Positions 4,229 to 36,509 of a DNA stretch of 64,000 nt are shown here, one piece after another; position 1 is the stretch's first letter; every line of letters starts with the position of its first letter. The translations under genes and the position numbers were made by a program. This DNA comes from an uncultured Gammaproteobacteria bacterium (GTDB lineage Bacteria > Patescibacteriota > Microgenomatia > Levybacterales > UBA12049). Under the pieces are notes generated by a model. The model did no database searches, was not told the origin of the DNA, and worked only from the letters and a program-made list of their open reading frames with translations. Location: NCBI GenBank assembly GCA_964515545.1, contig CAZERI010000001.1, forward strand, positions 69,625 through 133,624, written 5' to 3'.

Positions 4229-5608
4229 TTACCCAACAAATGCTTTAGTTATCCCCATGATATCATCAACAATTTTAGCCTTGTTTTCCACAAGACCTTC
4301 TATCTTTTCCACACCATGCATAATGGTAGTATGATCACGTCCTCCTAAGAGATTGCCTATTTCAACATAGGTGAGGCCTAGCTGCTCTTTGAGAAGATAC
4401 ATCGCTACCTGTCGGGCTTTAACAAGGCTTGCGTCACGTTTTGGTCCTTTGAGTTGAGTTGCTTTCACTCCATAGAACTCACAGACACTCTTAACTACAT
4501 CTTCAGCGTGGATATGCGAAGTCCTCTCTTCGCGCATAATCCCTAGAGCTTTTTCTGCTAGATCGAGATTGATCTCTCCCCCTGTGGTAGTAGCTTGGGT
4601 AATAACGCGAAGTAACAACCCCTCAAGGCTCCGTGTATCCTCTACTCTCTCTGCCAGAAGTGTGGCGACTTCAATTGGTAGGCTATAACCAAATTTCTCA
4701 GCTTTCATTTGGAGGATTGCAGTCTTTAGCTCAACATCAGGCTTCTCGATATCGACAGTTAATCCTCCAGCAAAGCGGGAAGAAAGACGCTTTTCCAACT
4801 TCTTTATCTCATGGGGCGGGCGATCTGAGGAGAGGCAGATTTGCGCATGGTTATCAATAAGGATATTAAATGTATGAAATAATTCTTCTTGGACTTTCTC
4901 CTTACCTTCAATAAACTGGATATCGTCAATAATAAGAAGAATTGCGGAGCGAAATCTCTTCTTCATTTGAGCGGTTGAATTAGTACGGATTGCCTCAACT
5001 ACTTCGTTAGTAAATTCTTCACTCGTAATATAGATGATCTTTTTATCAGGAGCTTGGAGATAGACTTGGTTAGCGATTGCATGCATGAGATGTGTCTTGC
5101 CTACTCCAACTGGTCCATAGAGAAAAAGGGGGTTATAAAATGTGCCGATATGCTTAGCCACTGTCGAGGCAGCTGTGAAAGCAAGCTGGTTACTGCCTGA
5201 GACAGCAAAAGTAGCAAAGGTGTACTCGGGACGGACTCGGGGAAGGTGTCCGATAGCAAGGGGCTGTGACTTAATTTTTTCTGGCTCAGCTGTGATTTCC
5301 TTTTTCTCATGAGAATCTGCAAAGAGAGGACTTTCTTCATCCTTAGATTCTTGTTTTATAGCTTTAACGATAAAGACTATTTCATTATCTCGTTTAGTGT
5401 TCTTGTCTAACAGGAGCTTTATATCAGCCTTAAAGCGTTTTTGGAGTAAGTCTGCGATCATAAGAGAAGGAGTGGCGATGGTTGCAATATTGTCATCAAG
5501 CGAAAGGAGTGCAGTACTTTTAAAAAACATGACAAAATTGCCTGTTGAGACCTTCTTTTTAATTTCTGAGAGTACGGCATTCCAAGTAGCTGTTAATTCT
5601 TTATCCAT
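4229..5608 (-). CDS. dnaA: chromosomal replication initiator protein DnaA
   Basis: Walker A GPVGVGKTHLMHAI, AAA+ domain, C-terminal DnaA DNA-binding signature (LTYVEIGNLLGGRDHTTIMHGVEKIE). Confidence 0.95.
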   Translation of the reverse strand: MDKELTATWNAVLSEIKKKVSTGNFVMFFKSTALLSLDDNIATIATPSLMIADLLQKRFKADIKLLLDKNTKRDNEIVFIVKAIKQESKDEESPLFADSHEKKEITAEPEKIKSQPLAIGHLPRVRPEYTFATFAVSGSNQLAFTAASTVAKHIGTFYNPLFLYGPVGVGKTHLMHAIANQVYLQAPDKKIIYITSEEFTNEVVEAIRTNSTAQMKKRFRSAILLIIDDIQFIEGKEKVQEELFHTFNILIDNHAQICLSSDRPPHEIKKLEKRLSSRFAGGLTVDIEKPDVELKTAILQMKAEKFGYSLPIEVATLLAERVEDTRSLEGLLLRVITQATTTGGEINLDLAEKALGIMREERTSHIHAEDVVKSVCEFYGVKATQLKGPKRDASLVKARQVAMYLLKEQLGLTYVEIGNLLGGRDHTTIMHGVEKIEGLVENKAKIVDDIMGITKAFVG

Positions 5609-17573: not shown

Positions 17574-18878
17574 ATGGTGTATCAAGCAACTGAGAGTGCA
17601 TATCAGCTTACCTTCCGTGAGGATGATGCGAAGGCTCTTGGTGAACATTTACATAGACGCCACTCAGTGGATCTTATTGGTATGAAGAGAGTAGGAATTA
17701 GTAACTTCTTACGTTATTTTCTCTATCATAAAGATCTCAAAGAAACCTTTATTAGTCCTTCAGAAAATCACCTTCTTATCTCAGTTGATCTTAATGATCT
17801 TGTTGAGCGGGAGCTCTATGCTTTTTGGACGCTTACCTTCAAGCGTGTTATCGACAGCGTGGAAGAAGCGGACGTATCACCTGAGCTTAAGCAAAAAATC
17901 TCAACGGCTTTCCTTTCATCAATCCAGACGCAAGATTTGTTTCTGCTTCTTGATGCATTACGGAAAAGCATGGGACTTCTCGTCCAATCAGGTGTCTTAC
18001 CAACCGTGTTTTTCCTCCGTTTTGATCGCATTAAAGATGCGGTTACCCCCGAATTTGTTGATAATCTGCAGGGATTACGCGATGCGACTCATGAGAAGCT
18101 TTGTTATGTCTTTACGAGTTATAGAAGTCTCGATGTTTTGTGTCCCCAAGCATTTACAAAGGCAAGCCTTAATGCTTTCTGCCAGCTGATGTATATCCGT
18201 CCTCTCAGAGATGCAGATATGCGAATTATTATCCAAGAGTATAAAAAACGTTATGCTTTGGATATTAATGAAGACCTAGAGAGTCACCTCATAAAATTAG
18301 TAGGTGGGAATGTCCAGTATATGCAGGTAGTCCTAGTTATCCTTAGTGAACAAAAAGAAATGACACCTCTTACTAAAGAAAATCTTGAAGATATCATTAG
18401 GCAAGATGAGCGTATCTCCCTTCTAGGAGAAGAGTTATGGGAGAGTCTGAGTAGTTCAGAAAAAGAAGCCCTTGCCAAAATTGAGACCCAAGAAATCCTT
18501 ACTGACGATGAAAAAAAAGTAGCTAGTTATATCTTCGAGACTGGGATAGTAAGGGAGGGGAAGCCATTACAGGTATTCAATCCCTTATTTGCTGAATATG
18601 TGCAGGGGGTTCTTCAGCATGTCTCCCGAGAAAGGGAGCTTGTTTTTAGCAAGAAAGAGCATCTTCTTTTTACCCTTTTACAAAATCATGTGGGAGAGAT
18701 TTGTGAACGGGATTTAATTATCGAGGCAGTATGGCCTGAGTATCGGGAATTTGGAGTATCTGATTGGTCAATTGATCGTTTAGTAGCAAGAGTTCGCAGT
18801 AAACTGAAAAAGCAAGCAAGCCCTTTTGAAATTCGAACGATCCGTACGCGCGGATATATGCTCACCGAGCGAAGTTAA
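17574..18878 (+). CDS. transcriptional regulator: N-terminal degenerate P-loop/AAA-like domain plus C-terminal OmpR/PhoB-type winged-helix DNA-binding domain
   Basis: C-terminal trans_reg_C signature ICERDLIIEAVWPE...SIDRLVARVRSKLKK...IRTIRTRGYML. N-terminal GMKRVGIS (Walker-A-like without Lys). No receiver domain. Confidence 0.6.
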   Translation: MVYQATESAYQLTFREDDAKALGEHLHRRHSVDLIGMKRVGISNFLRYFLYHKDLKETFISPSENHLLISVDLNDLVERELYAFWTLTFKRVIDSVEEADVSPELKQKISTAFLSSIQTQDLFLLLDALRKSMGLLVQSGVLPTVFFLRFDRIKDAVTPEFVDNLQGLRDATHEKLCYVFTSYRSLDVLCPQAFTKASLNAFCQLMYIRPLRDADMRIIIQEYKKRYALDINEDLESHLIKLVGGNVQYMQVVLVILSEQKEMTPLTKENLEDIIRQDERISLLGEELWESLSSSEKEALAKIETQEILTDDEKKVASYIFETGIVREGKPLQVFNPLFAEYVQGVLQHVSRERELVFSKKEHLLFTLLQNHVGEICERDLIIEAVWPEYREFGVSDWSIDRLVARVRSKLKKQASPFEIRTIRTRGYMLTERS

Positions 18879-31196: not shown

Positions 31197-33844
<2,648 letters not shown>

Positions 33845-33845
33845 T

Positions 33846-33873
33846 TTGACAATTTTTAGCTTTGAGGTATAAT
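33846..33873 (+). promoter_or_regulatory. consensus sigma70 promoter TTGACA-16-TATAAT driving the T-box leader
   Basis: Exact consensus hexamers at 33846-33851 and 33868-33873. Confidence 0.55.
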
Positions 33874-33879
33874 AAACAT

Positions 33880-34208
33880 AGCGTTGATCCGGAATTTTGG
33901 AACCGGGGAGTAATAGCAAAATACATCACATCAAACGTGATTGGAATAATGCACGGAGGCGAAACCGATAAAGTCTGCAACGTGAATTGTCTCGAAAGAG
34001 AATTACGCACGTCAAGGAATAAGGTTTTCTTATAGACGTGCTCCCTAAAGGAGCATTTTTTATGCCTTCCTTCGCATACAGCTACGGAAGGGTTAAATAA
34101 GAAAATAAAGCAAGGTGGCACCGTCCTTCGGTGAACTCAGGATAAACCTAGTTTGAGAGGGCCCTTGTGAGATCACGACTCGTTTTGTGGTTTCACAAGG
34201 GCTTTTTT
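33880..34208 (+). promoter_or_regulatory. T-box riboswitch leader, Trp-specific: specifier loop with UGG-A (33898-33901), T-box core GGUGGCACCG (34114-34123) with a UGGC bulge, antiterminator/terminator switch
   Basis: Hairpin CCGG-AAUUUUGGAA-CCGG exposes UGG followed by A. AAGCAAGGUGGCACCGUC resembles the T-box consensus AAUUAGGGUGGNACCGCG. The CAAGG/CCUUG helix flanking the 7-nt bulge overlaps the terminator 5' arm. Confidence 0.6.
34161..34208 (+). terminator. intrinsic terminator of the T-box leader (GCCCUUGUGA...UCACAAGGGC + U6)
   Basis: 10-bp stem plus a run of six T at 34203-34208. Confidence 0.55.
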
Positions 34209-34320
34209 AATGCCCTCAGAGGAGATGAGGTGAGGACACTAAGCGTCCAAAACCGCGTTGAATCTGTCGCACATTTTATGAGGAGGATAGAGCACAGCTC
34301 TATCTTAACAGGAGAAAAAA

Positions 34321-34614
34321 ATGCTAACTGTCAGCTTTGGGCATGAAGAGATTTCAGTCACGGGAATCAGTGTCGAGGATTTTTCGCAACCTACTCCCTA
34401 CGTTCTGTGCTCACAGGACGGACGGATACAAGGTGTCGATTCCGAGACCGAACACTACCTGAAGGCACATCGTCGCGTTTTCATCACGCTTGATGAACAA
34501 GACGGGAGAGTCTTTCTCGCCAATGCTCACCTATTTCGTGGCGTATTGTATTGTACGCCAGCTCCGTTGACATTCGTACCAGAACCAACTGATGGCTGTC
34601 TTTGGCAAAGCTAG
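34321..34614 (+). CDS. small hypothetical protein (97 aa) downstream of the T-box, with a good SD (AGGAG 8 nt upstream)
   Basis: ORF plus RBS. GC content higher than surroundings. No recognisable domain. Confidence 0.4.
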   Translation: MLTVSFGHEEISVTGISVEDFSQPTPYVLCSQDGRIQGVDSETEHYLKAHRRVFITLDEQDGRVFLANAHLFRGVLYCTPAPLTFVPEPTDGCLWQS

Positions 34615-34700
34615 CAACTGGATCTGCCGGGGAAATGCCCGGCAGATCAGATTCTATCCTCCTCATTTTTAAAGCGGTAGTATATAATGCAAACAATAAT

Positions 34701-35687
34701 ATGAAGAAAAAAGTGTATTCAGGAATACGGGCAACCGGAAGGCTCCATCTAGGCAACTATATGGGAGCTGTTAAGGGGATGCTTGCGGTACAAGACGAGT
34801 ATGACTGCGTCTTTTCTGTCGTGGACTTACACGCGATCACCACTCCTTATGATAAAGATACGCTTTCTGAGGCAACCCGCAGTGTTATCCTTGACTACTT
34901 AGCTGCAGGACTTGATCCAGAAAAATGTTTGATTGAGGTACAGTCACTCGTCCCTGAGCATATGGAACTGGCCTACTATTTAGGTACGATTTACCCAGTC
35001 AGTCGCCTCGAGGATCTTCCTACCTATAAAGATAAAAAAGCTCAGCATCCAGAATACATCAACATGGGACTTTTATATTACCCAATCCTTATGGCTGCTG
35101 ACATCATGCTTTATAAAGGTGAGTTAGTGCCAGTTGGTATTGATCAGGAACCCCATTTAGAGGTTACCCGTGAGATTGCCAGGAAGTTTAACCGAATGTT
35201 CGGCGAGACTTTTCCTGAGCCAAAACGATTTAAAACAGTTGGAGAGTATGTGCCATCCCTTACAGGAGAGGGGAAAATGAGTAAGTCAGTTGAAGGGAGT
35301 TTTATTAACTTAACGGATTCTCTAGATGAGATTAAAGGAAAGCTTGCAAAAGTTCCAACAGATAGTGGACAAATCGGCGGACAAATTCCTCAAGTGGGAG
35401 GAGTAGCTAATCTATTTACCCTTATGTATCTTTTCGGCGGTAAGGAGTTACATCACAACTATGTCATTGACTATAAAGACAAGAAGATCAGATATAGTGA
35501 CATGAAGGCGGAATTAGCGGAGGTAATATATAAAGAATTAGCACCTATCCAAGAAAAACGGAAGTATTATGAAGACCATCCTGAGATTGTGGATCAGATA
35601 CTTCGTGAACACACCGATCGTTGCCGAGCCCAAGCACAGCTTGTCATCCGTGAAGTTAAGAGTAAAATGGGCTTTTTTAGTTTGTAA
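34701..35687 (+). CDS. trpS: tryptophan--tRNA ligase
   Basis: MKKKVYSGIRATGRLHLGNYMGA (HIGH-type) and KMSKS. TATAAT at 34683-34688. The start at MKKKV is preferred over the upstream in-frame start of the ORF track. Confidence 0.9.
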   Translation: MKKKVYSGIRATGRLHLGNYMGAVKGMLAVQDEYDCVFSVVDLHAITTPYDKDTLSEATRSVILDYLAAGLDPEKCLIEVQSLVPEHMELAYYLGTIYPVSRLEDLPTYKDKKAQHPEYINMGLLYYPILMAADIMLYKGELVPVGIDQEPHLEVTREIARKFNRMFGETFPEPKRFKTVGEYVPSLTGEGKMSKSVEGSFINLTDSLDEIKGKLAKVPTDSGQIGGQIPQVGGVANLFTLMYLFGGKELHHNYVIDYKDKKIRYSDMKAELAEVIYKELAPIQEKRKYYEDHPEIVDQILREHTDRCRAQAQLVIREVKSKMGFFSL

Positions 35688-35693
35688 TTCTTC

Positions 35694-36509
35694 ATGGATG
35701 TAACCCCTGAGCATATTTTTCAATTTCAAGAAAAGATTCTTACCTGGTATAGCCACAACAAGCGTGATTTGCCTTGGCGAAAGACCAGGAACCCTTATCA
35801 CATTCTTATCTCTGAGGTGATGTCGCAGCAGACACAGCTTGCTCGGGTAATTCCAAAATATGAAGCCTGGATTACGAAGTTCTCACGAGTAGATGAGCTG
35901 GCTAATGCAGCTACCAGCGATGTGTTGCGGATGTGGTCGGGGCTTGGCTATAACAGAAGAGCTCTTAATCTGCAGAAAACAGCGCAAGTTATTGTGAAAG
36001 AGTATGGAGGAGTGTTCCCAAAAGAGGTCGAAGAGTTGGTTAAACTCCCCGGATTAGGAAAATATACAGCCTCAGCGGTGGCCTGCTTTGCTTTTGATGT
36101 CCAGATCCCAGTAATTGACACCAATATTCGTAAAGTCATTACCCATGAATTCTTTCAAGGAGTATTGCCAGAGGAGAAGATGATTGAAAAAATAGCACTC
36201 CATATTCTTCCGTTAGGCAAGGCTTATGAGTGGAATCAAGCGTTAATGGACTATAGCGCTCTTATGATGAAAGGTAAAAAAATTCCTGTTCCTAAACAAT
36301 CCCACTTCCTAAGTTCTAATAGGTATTATAGGGGACAGACAATAAAGCTTTTACTGAGCGTGTCTGAGATATCTCTTTCAGGGCTCTGGGATTTTTTCGA
36401 TGAGCGAAATCCAATTGAGAGAGGAAGGCTAGAAGAGCTCTTATTATCGATGGAGAAGGATGGTCTTATTATTGTAAGGAAAGGGAGAATTTCTCTGCCA
36501 GCAGGGTAA
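35694..36509 (+). CDS. HhH-GPD DNA glycosylase, MutY-like catalytic domain, lacking the 4Fe-4S cluster loop and the C-terminal NUDIX-like domain
   Basis: SEVMSQQTQ (MutY-type), HhH LPGLGKYTASAVACFAF, catalytic Asp in PVIDTNIRKV. No Cys cluster. Confidence 0.7.
   Translation: MDVTPEHIFQFQEKILTWYSHNKRDLPWRKTRNPYHILISEVMSQQTQLARVIPKYEAWITKFSRVDELANAATSDVLRMWSGLGYNRRALNLQKTAQVIVKEYGGVFPKEVEELVKLPGLGKYTASAVACFAFDVQIPVIDTNIRKVITHEFFQGVLPEEKMIEKIALHILPLGKAYEWNQALMDYSALMMKGKKIPVPKQSHFLSSNRYYRGQTIKLLLSVSEISLSGLWDFFDERNPIERGRLEELLLSMEKDGLIIVRKGRISLPAG

Follow-up and report, generated by a model that had tools for sequence, protein, structure and literature searches.

What occupies the interval between a consensus promoter and the tryptophanyl-tRNA synthetase gene trpS in a 64,000-nucleotide stretch of contig CAZERI010000001.1 (assembly GCA_964515545.1; hereafter the window), and which genes does it govern? 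The first-pass annotation read this interval as a tryptophan-specific T-box riboswitch, with an antiterminator and a terminator, upstream of a 97-residue open reading frame (ORF97) and trpS. T-boxes are a model case of an RNA that recognizes another structured RNA. The element is very probably a tRNA-Trp-responsive transcription attenuator, and the region 33846-34209 is most likely composed of a promoter and a tRNA-Trp-sensing T-box leader with an antiterminator/terminator choice. The core of the earlier claim is retained on the strength of covariation in all proposed helices, codon concordance and the discriminator base G73 in most relatives; a classical T-box it is not, as Stem I is ultrashort and the elbow platform is missing. 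The assignment draws on the sequence elements, their covariation, the concordance between codon and downstream gene, the discriminator match seen in relatives, and a homology to RF00230, the T-box model of Rfam, that runs through intermediate members, while tRNA binding, the sensing of charging and read-through are proposed by analogy with the established T-box mechanism.

Specifier hairpin, antiterminator and terminator

The elements that carry the assignment are located as follows.

33846-33873, + strand: sigma-70 consensus promoter, TTGACA-16-TATAAT (12/12 consensus matches)
33879-33913, + strand: kink-turn (K-turn) AGC-GUU-GA...GA-GUA with ultrashort Stem I UCCGG/CCGGG (covariation; independent model R1)
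34110-34168, + strand: T-box antiterminator, with helix A1 GCAAGG 34110-15 / CCUUGU 34163-68, bulge UGGCACC 34116-22 and helix A2 GUCC 34123-26 / GGGC 34159-62 (minimum free energy (MFE) fold; covariation)
34159-34209, + strand: intrinsic terminator, built with the 3' half of the antiterminator as its 5' arm, and U6 at 34203-08 (terminator scan; fold; covariation)

About 50 related leaders of common architecture were found in Levybacteria genomes and metagenomes. The parts in common are a K-turn below a 5-bp hairpin with an invariant UGG-A in its 10-nt terminal loop, small hairpins resembling Stem II and IIA/F-box, the antiterminator CAAGG(UGGCACC)A2...CCUUG and a terminator that overlaps it. 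The genome homologues are L001, L002, L008, L012, L034, L081, L082 and L204, and about 40 metagenomic contigs provide the remainder; the leaders of L081, L082 and L083 were reached through homologues of ORF97. A metagenome scan for the antiterminator/terminator core returned 120 contigs, comprising canonical T-boxes and many leaders with a short Stem I. The promoter, as had been annotated, is perfect, and 33846-33873 is the only perfect site that the promoter scan reports in 33000-36000. TTGACA-N16/17-TATAAT is found at the equivalent position in L001, L002, L081, L082 and L204. The transcript start is predicted at ~33880.

The strands of the K-turn are situated at 33880-87 and 33908-12, with the GA motif below Stem I that is characteristic of T-boxes. 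Above it, the specifier hairpin (33888-33907) presents a 10-nt terminal loop, AAUUUUGGAA, in which the Trp codon UGG (33898-33900) is followed by A33901. The hairpin had been described as CCGG-AAUUUUGGAA-CCGG (33889-33906) displaying UGG-A; it is present, and is better drawn with the five-pair stem UCCGG/CCGGG. The topology is non-canonical, as the codon resides in a terminal loop in the window and in an internal loop in canonical T-boxes. Twenty-nine distinct leaders conform to NNNN-NNN-GA-(5 bp)-(10-nt loop ending UGG-A-N)-(5 bp)-GA-NNNN. Their selection demanded the stem and UGG and left the C-stem of the K-turn unconstrained. Across this set 88% of the cells of Stem I and the C-stem are paired, with 53 double-sided changes, a level reached by 0/500 shuffles; the C-stem counts are GC 15, CG 8, GU 4 at one pair and AU 10, UA 8, CG 5 at another. 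UGG and both GA dinucleotides are invariant, in part through the selection criteria, and UGG-A is present in all 29, UGG being required by the search. Model R1, a covariance model of the Stem I/K-turn from which the window and its close relatives were excluded, has a single significant match in the window, at 33879-33913 (36.5 bits, E=3.9e-7; next best E=2.1). UUGGAA at 33942-47 was considered as an alternative specifier and ruled out; it sits in a window-specific insertion that has no counterpart in L001, L002 and L082.

The T-box sequence AAGCAAGGUGGCACCGUC is found at 34108-34125, and GGTGGNACCG occurs once in the 64-kb window against 0.13 occurrences expected by chance. When 34107-34170 is folded alone, the MFE structure (-17.8 kcal/mol) assumes the T-box topology, in which UGGCACC stays unpaired between a 6-bp A1 and A2. 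The 7-nt bulge between A1 and A2 conforms to UGGNACC, in line with the consensus recognized earlier. The positions of A2 that were not fixed by the search pattern covary (UA 23, CG 9, AU 8 at one pair; CG 41, UA 4 at the other). The first A2 pair is G-C in the window element, in contrast to the G.U wobble described for T-boxes (PMC7583486). L001 and L002 possess a compact antiterminator, CAAGG(UGGCACC)GCC-loop-GGC-CCUUG.

The terminator, 34159-34204 followed by U6, consists of 20 pairs plus the T-run and folds with -35 kcal/mol (z = -8.1). Its 5' arm includes the 3' strands of both A2 and A1, and the two structures are therefore mutually exclusive. Covariation of this hairpin is pronounced: 97.8% of cells are paired, 6 pairs and 64 cells carry double-sided changes, and 0/500 shuffles score as high. 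The overlap of antiterminator flanks with a strong U6 terminator, which had been proposed from inspection, is borne out by the folds of both states and by covariation.

The codon displayed in the loop agrees with the genes downstream across the family. Leaders with a UGG loop lie upstream of trpS, tRNA-Trp(CCA) genes, trpE-trpG-trpD operons (assigned by Pfam) and genes of the Asp/Glu-racemase family. Leaders of the same build with a GAC or AAC loop lie upstream of class II D/K/N synthetases, and one leader with a CGC loop precedes ornithine carbamoyltransferase. The discriminator base of tRNA-Trp is G73 in 8/10 genes on related contigs, including L035, whose trpS is 62% identical, and this base fits the UGGC of the bulge.

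In the proposed mechanism, the transcript would begin near 33880, and the K-turn and 5-bp Stem I would form and present UGG-A in the terminal loop for pairing with the CCA anticodon of tRNA-Trp. Small hairpins resembling Stem II and Stem IIA/F-box, a hairpin termed P2c and a composite Stem III would form next. The 3' GCCA end of an uncharged tRNA could then pair with UGGC in the bulge and stabilize the weak antiterminator (~-18 kcal/mol) against the terminator (~-35 kcal/mol), upon which RNA polymerase would continue into ORF97 and possibly trpS. With charged tRNA the terminator would form, and transcription would stop at the U-run 34203-08.

Relationship to known T-boxes

RF00230 gives no match on 33800-34750 at E<=10 and none at gathering score on the window; in E-value mode nothing is found in the closest relatives L001, L008 and L012. 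The first-pass annotation had proposed this search as a check and had named the lack of a significant match as evidence against itself. The empty result is not decisive, because RF00230 aligns the leader of L103 end to end and R1 matches at 33879-33913. The gathering cut-off of RF00230 is 93 bits, and a canonical control with the appearance of a textbook T-box, L090, obtains 78.7 bits (E=1.6e-17). Rfam scans at gathering score, which report no T-box in the window or in 60 related loci, are uninformative because this control also scores below 93. The same control indicates that RF00230 was present and functional, and the window leader is therefore beyond the reach of the model. In E-value mode, family members score 45.5 (L091), 40.2 (L097), 34.7 (L103) and 29.5 bits (L085), all below 93, and all family members tested go undetected by annotation at Rfam thresholds.

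L103 provides the bridge. Its leader has the same architecture as that of the window, and RF00230 aligns the whole of it (34.7 bits, E=2e-6; local search). The alignment matches the K-turn and the base of Stem I, the mini Stem II, Stem IIA with the F-box, and the antiterminator, while 8 nt replace 74 model positions of distal Stem I. The leader class is therefore regarded as homologous to T-boxes but devoid of the tRNA-elbow platform. Judged by its sequence, the element appears to be a divergent member of the T-box superfamily, in a class that was previously unannotated, is abundant in the metagenome scan and lacks the distal Stem I platform.

Several observations, besides the empty RF00230 searches of the window and its closest relatives, weigh against a tRNA-Trp-responsive attenuator. 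The distal Stem I platform, i.e. the AG bulge and distal loop that form the interdigitated double T-loop motif (IDTM), is absent from a Stem I of 5 bp with a 10-nt loop, and PMC7583486 calls this platform generally required in transcriptional T-boxes. A terminator-like hairpin, T1, with U6 (34038-34061) lies within the leader and could end transcription before the discriminator is read. The window copy bears three hairpin insertions. The only tRNA gene in the window is tRNA-Ala, so that the discriminator match is known from relatives alone, and two related tRNA-Trp genes (L117 and L192) have A73 beside a UGGC bulge. Finally, a TATAAT-like box stands ~6-14 nt before a trpS that lacks a Shine-Dalgarno (SD) sequence in most Levybacteria relatives, with or without a leader.

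Comparison with described systems places the element closest to the canonical class I transcriptional T-boxes (Bacillus subtilis tyrS/glyQS; RF00230). Both have a K-turn at the foot of Stem I, a purine next to the specifier codon on its 3' side, a IIA-like hairpin with an F-box-like sequence behind it, a UGGNACC bulge between A1 and A2, a competing intrinsic terminator and a codon matched to the downstream genes. The window element differs in its missing distal Stem I, in the 10-nt terminal loop that holds the codon, in a Stem II of just 3-4 bp, and in the addition of P2c and a composite Stem III enclosing a U-run hairpin. The ileS T-boxes of actinobacteria, whose Stem I is intermediate or "ultrashort" (Sherwood et al. 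2015, cited through PMC7583486; TBDB class II), likewise combine a truncated, platform-less Stem I with a retained K-turn and presumably owe their tRNA affinity to the Stem II region further down. They are translational, act by SD sequestration and respond to Ile, in contrast to the 20-bp terminator with U6, the Trp codon, the host in the candidate phyla radiation (CPR) and the much smaller Stem II of the window element. The SD-sequestrator platform of class II is absent from the window leader: the 20-bp hairpin is followed by U6, and the next SD lies ~100 nt downstream. The 3' arm CAAGGG comes to lie 5-11 nt before a start codon in some members of the family and could double as an SD. A start codon at this distance from the CAAGGG-U-run is seen in L110, L104, L121, L202, L191, L012 and L008, where CAAGGG is the only SD-like sequence, and suggests combined control of transcription and translation in such members.

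The glyQS-type T-boxes, which lack Stem II and IIA/B, resemble the shortest members of the family (L104, L110, L085), in which a purine-rich linker connects Stem I to the antiterminator, Stem III being present in some and absent in others. Nevertheless, glyQS retains a long Stem I with its platform, and the window copy is a long form with a middle domain. The staphylococcal glyS T-box carries a lineage-specific hairpin, the "stem Sa" insertion, in the antiterminator domain (PMC9177973), comparable to 34127-58 in the A2 loop of the window; host lineage, amino acid and insertion sequence are different there.

According to PMC7583486, transcriptional T-boxes generally depend on a long Stem I as a clamp for the tRNA elbow; truncation is tolerated by translational ones only. 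The present family tests this rule directly because it combines an ultrashort Stem I with a classical terminator. A literature search that coupled T-boxes with CPR, Patescibacteria, Saccharibacteria, Parcubacteria or Microgenomates yielded no relevant paper, the stripped-down type of this leader was found in none of the papers searched, and the phylum and candidate-taxon terms checked in the TBDB paper gave no CPR lineages. The assignment would place amino-acid sensing by riboswitch in the CPR/Patescibacteria. Organisms of the CPR mostly rely on hosts for amino acids. The leader family also offers a handle on genes of unknown function, namely ORF97, proteins of 353 and 394 residues and a racemase, whose placement downstream of a Trp sensor suggests that they act in tryptophan acquisition or starvation.

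A broader proposal is put forward tentatively, and we consider it somewhat doubtful: that the leaders constitute a distinct and widespread CPR class of platform-less transcriptional T-boxes, in which the anticodon is read by a hairpin loop beside a K-turn, and in which the U-run hairpin in Stem III serves as a programmed pause or first checkpoint allowing slow tRNA capture. Such a class would control synthetase, biosynthesis, tRNA-Trp and orphan cargo genes, with ORF97 as a player in the tryptophan starvation response.

ORF97, trpS and the extent of control

The region downstream of the terminator contains the following features.

34210-34320, + strand: conserved structured spacer, with element U AUGAGGAGGAUAGA at 34278-34291, a hairpin at 34288-34307 and the ORF97 SD AGGAG at 34310-14 (conservation)
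34321-34614, + strand: ORF97, first cistron downstream of the leader, encoding a small orphan protein (codon-level comparison)
34618-34666, + strand: strong hairpin 34621-31 / 34638-48, then element D UCUAUCCUCCUCAU at 34653-66 (fold; covariation)
34683-34688, + strand: -10-like TATAAT 12 nt before the trpS start, without SD or good -35 (read from the sequence; not listed by the promoter scan)
34701-35687, + strand: trpS, tryptophanyl-tRNA synthetase (Pfam PF00579, tRNA-synt_1b, E=2.1e-59)

ORF97 had been noted as an SD-preceded frame with raised GC, and both features are found: AGGAG precedes it, and its GC content is 49.7% compared with 41.7% for the window. Relative to homologues, its differences fall on the three codon positions as 17/15/31 and 27/22/41, and 30 codon changes are synonymous against 25 non-synonymous. 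ORF97 is a genuine coding gene because of this third-position bias and synonymous excess, and the suggestion that it might be a mis-called part of a longer leader can be set aside. No Pfam family is assigned to it. Relatives amount to 3 proteins in 5.8 billion clusters; a profile search adds four small family members (96-138 aa), and apart from these its matches are weak and fall on beta-strand repeats (DUF5018) of giant surface proteins. The AlphaFold2 model has a mean predicted local distance difference test score (pLDDT) of 50. As to conservation downstream of T-boxes, a check recommended earlier, an ORF97-family gene follows the leader in every readable member (window, L081, L082/L083, L001, L002, L194/L200 and L204). 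For P0006, gene order alone is known: an ORF97-family gene occupies the tgt-trpS slot there too, with a gap of 393 nt in front of it.

The spacer ahead of ORF97 is highly conserved, with compensatory changes in L001, L002, L081, L082 and L204. Element U pairs with element D in a 14-bp long-range helix (34278-91 with 34653-66) that brackets ORF97 and is followed by a U-run; the SD-like GAGGAGG is thereby paired with the anti-SD-like CCUCCUC. This U:D helix is found in both the MFE and the centroid folds of 34205-34705. It covaries at one position, which is A-U in the window, L081 and L001, G-C in L082 and L002, and G.U in L200. According to these folds the helix could serve in processing, insulation or termination.

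The synthetase gene itself is clear, its relatives being proteins of 94-56% identity in Levybacteria/Patescibacteria genomes, by which the window is assigned to a Candidatus Levybacteria (CPR/Patescibacteria) genome, and the annotated start at 34701 with its own TATAAT 12 nt upstream is confirmed. A TATAAT-like box and the lack of an SD characterize the trpS start in L003, L005, L008, L016, L020, L025, L027 and the window (34683-34703), which suggests that Levybacteria trpS mRNAs may be leaderless or have very short leaders. The box is kept whether or not a relative has the leader, which suggests a promoter of its own for trpS; control of trpS by the T-box may therefore be partial or absent.

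It is quite possible, if slightly less likely than not, that the T-box is functional and governs ORF97 only, as an "ORF97 riboswitch", while trpS is transcribed from its own promoter at TATAAT 34683-88 as a short-leader or leaderless mRNA. The box recurs even at the leaderless loci L004, L009 and L027, where tgt abuts trpS. An internal AUG without an SD would be poorly translated on a read-through transcript, and the conserved U:D helix with its U-run after ORF97 could insulate or terminate the upstream transcript. Nevertheless, the terminator scan finds no terminator-like site between ORF97 and trpS, and the -35 of the putative trpS promoter is poor. Across the wider family, the gene next to the leader is often trpS (at +62 in L084 and at +110 in L106). 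In L001, the genes run on without gaps up to trpS, which overlaps a BtpA gene that itself directly follows the ORF97-family gene, leaving no space for a separate promoter.

The gene order of the locus is murD-tgt-(variable)-trpS-HhH-ftsH, and the leader region is accessory because tgt nearly abuts trpS in L004, L009 and L027. Other Levybacteria cargo in the variable slot includes BtpA, a 353-aa unknown protein with a histidine phosphatase, a 394-aa unknown protein with a racemase, and a sulfotransferase-like protein ahead of a fusion of an editing domain to TrpS. The fusion, at L034 1521-3068, has an N-terminal YbaK/ProX-type aminoacyl-tRNA editing domain (PF04073, E=2e-17). Genes of the racemase family (Asp/Glu/hydantoin) stand directly behind Trp leaders in L012 (2208-2909), L193 and L169, and accompany the 353-aa (L008 1289-2350) and 394-aa (L012 1021-2205) proteins; together these genes are candidates for tryptophan salvage functions. 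In L008, a TrpR-family gene (778-1035; PF01371, E=8e-21) is placed between the promoter and the T-box leader in the same orientation as both, an arrangement that would unite a protein repressor homologue and a riboswitch in a single transcription unit.

At eight loci a tRNA-Trp(CCA) gene is found 10-20 nt past the terminator of the Trp T-box, on the same strand, with trpS further downstream. The leaders that precede tRNA-Trp are the following.

L087 2291-2452
L105 4156-4300
L123 2407-2564
L136 1105-1261
L117 2405-2562, - strand
L192
L169
L201

Here the riboswitch appears to control transcription of the gene for its own ligand. In L103, the distance from terminator to tRNA-Trp is ~480 nt. L035 (207-516) combines a Trp Stem I/K-turn (R1 33.7 bits) and a Stem II/IIA-like domain with two successive hairpin-U-run terminators and has no UGGNACC bulge; tRNA-Trp (400-471) and trpS (516) lie downstream. 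This leader may be either a decayed T-box or one with a different read-out. Outside the Levybacteria, the Parcubacteria locus L070 (2385-2470) contains AAAAAGGUGGUACCGCGGGG...CCUCGUCCUUUUUU, which resembles a T-box and overlaps a terminator. A small ORF and trpS lie downstream; the bulge has U at its variable base, and nothing is reported there at the Rfam gathering score.

Middle domain and hairpin insertions

Between Stem I and the antiterminator, the leader contains four further features.

33915-33952, + strand: mini Stem II-like hairpin, GCA 33916-18 / UGC 33950-52 (alignments; RF00230 alignment of L103)
33954-33970, + strand: Stem IIA-like hairpin CGG-AGGCGAAA-CCG, then F-box-like CCGAUA (RNAalifold covariation)
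33980-34012, + strand: family-specific hairpin P2c, ACGUG 33980-84 / CACGU 34008-12, with apical GAAA loop (covariation)
34016-34109, + strand: purine string GGAAUAAG (34016-23), composite Stem III and flank AAA (34107-09) (fold; partner-swap control)

RF00230 aligns the L103 equivalent of the mini hairpin to Stem II and its AGUA, and the loop in relatives reads AAGUA. In the window the hairpin is extended by an inserted hairpin of its own (AUCAC 33925-29 / GUGAU 33937-41), part of a 21-nt insertion that is not found in alignments with L001, L002 and L082. The Stem IIA-like helix CGG/CCG (33954-56 / 33965-67) covaries, with GC 14, AU 5 and GU 1 at one pair (RNAalifold, 20 leaders), and in L103 RF00230 places ACGG..CCGUAA on Stem IIA and its F-box (CCGUUA). 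Pairing of the IIA loop AGGC with a downstream GUCU, as a Stem IIB pseudoknot, was rejected as no covariation was seen by eye in L119 and L121. All 5 pairs of P2c show compensatory changes in the same 20 leaders; P2c has no counterpart in RF00230 and is treated as an insertion in the alignment of L103.

The helix formed by GUUUUCUUAU (34024-33) and AUAAGAAAAU (34097-106), with its flanks GGAAUAAG and AAA, is read by us as a composite Stem III. Folding of 34014-34110 yields this helix (-28 kcal/mol, z = -3.4), within which a terminator-like hairpin and the window-specific insert hairpin at 34065-34091 are enclosed. Its strands differ in sequence between leaders (GUUAGC/GCUAGC, GUUGCC/GGCAAC, AAUUAUC/GAUAAUU). 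In 26 long-form leaders the summed complementarity is 223 nt, compared with 165 +/- 7 for partner-swapped and 153 +/- 6 for shuffled strands, with 0/500 as high. The purine flanks agree only approximately with 5'-RRRxG...AA-3', and the enclosed hairpin has an unusual U-run. This hairpin is T1 (34038-34056, U6 to 34061), which the terminator scan detects and the earlier reading overlooked. A GC-rich hairpin of the T1 type with U5-7 is kept upstream of the T-box sequence in all long-form leaders. It looks like an intrinsic terminator or pause signal, yet would form the apex of the composite Stem III. Pairing of GCACGUC (34007-13) with GACGUGC (34035-41), which would provide T1 with an antiterminator and make a three-way attenuator, was considered and discarded; it is not kept in L008, L096 and L103.

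The three hairpin insertions of the window leader (33925-41, 34065-91 and 34127-58) are lineage-specific and are all located in loops. Being insertions relative to L001 and L002, they invite the reading of the window leader as a decaying or inactive T-box relic, disabled by them and by an imperfect C-stem of the K-turn (AGC/GUA, one mismatch). The leader is evidently dispensable, since some relatives have none, and L035 retains the Stem I domain with the bulge lost. We nevertheless judge this reading improbable: each insertion folds as its own hairpin, all core elements are intact, the promoter is a perfect consensus, and antiterminator and terminator fold as expected. L082/L083, with only 64% identity in ORF97, also have the A2-loop insert (34127-58), which must therefore be old and tolerated; a comparable insertion in this domain occurs in staphylococcal glyS T-boxes (PMC9177973). 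It is very improbable that the region holds two separate elements, a ~180-nt small RNA ending at the first terminator (33880-34061) and an unrelated downstream attenuator, for although T1 with U6 is terminator-like and keeps its U-run in all long-form leaders, short and medium members join the same Stem I to the same T-box without T1 (22-118 nt between), a covarying long-range helix encloses T1 and makes it the tip of Stem III, and RF00230 aligns L103 across both halves as a single leader.

The palindromic insert CCGCCAGCTGGCGG has no further copies in the 64-kb window. The ~30-nt hairpin CCUUCCUUCGC...CGGAAGG (34065-34091) recurs elsewhere, in L081 (~4403-4430), where it displaced the trpS start, in L004 upstream of trpS, and in L198; one more CCTTCG...CGGAAGG copy is located in the window at 17611-17634 (- strand). 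A second palindrome, UCCGCCAGCUGGCGGA, is inserted in leader loops on several contigs (L081, L087, L105, L113, L121). Both the CCUUCCUUCGC...CGGAAGG hairpin and the UCCGCCAGCUGGCGGA palindrome look like small insertion elements.

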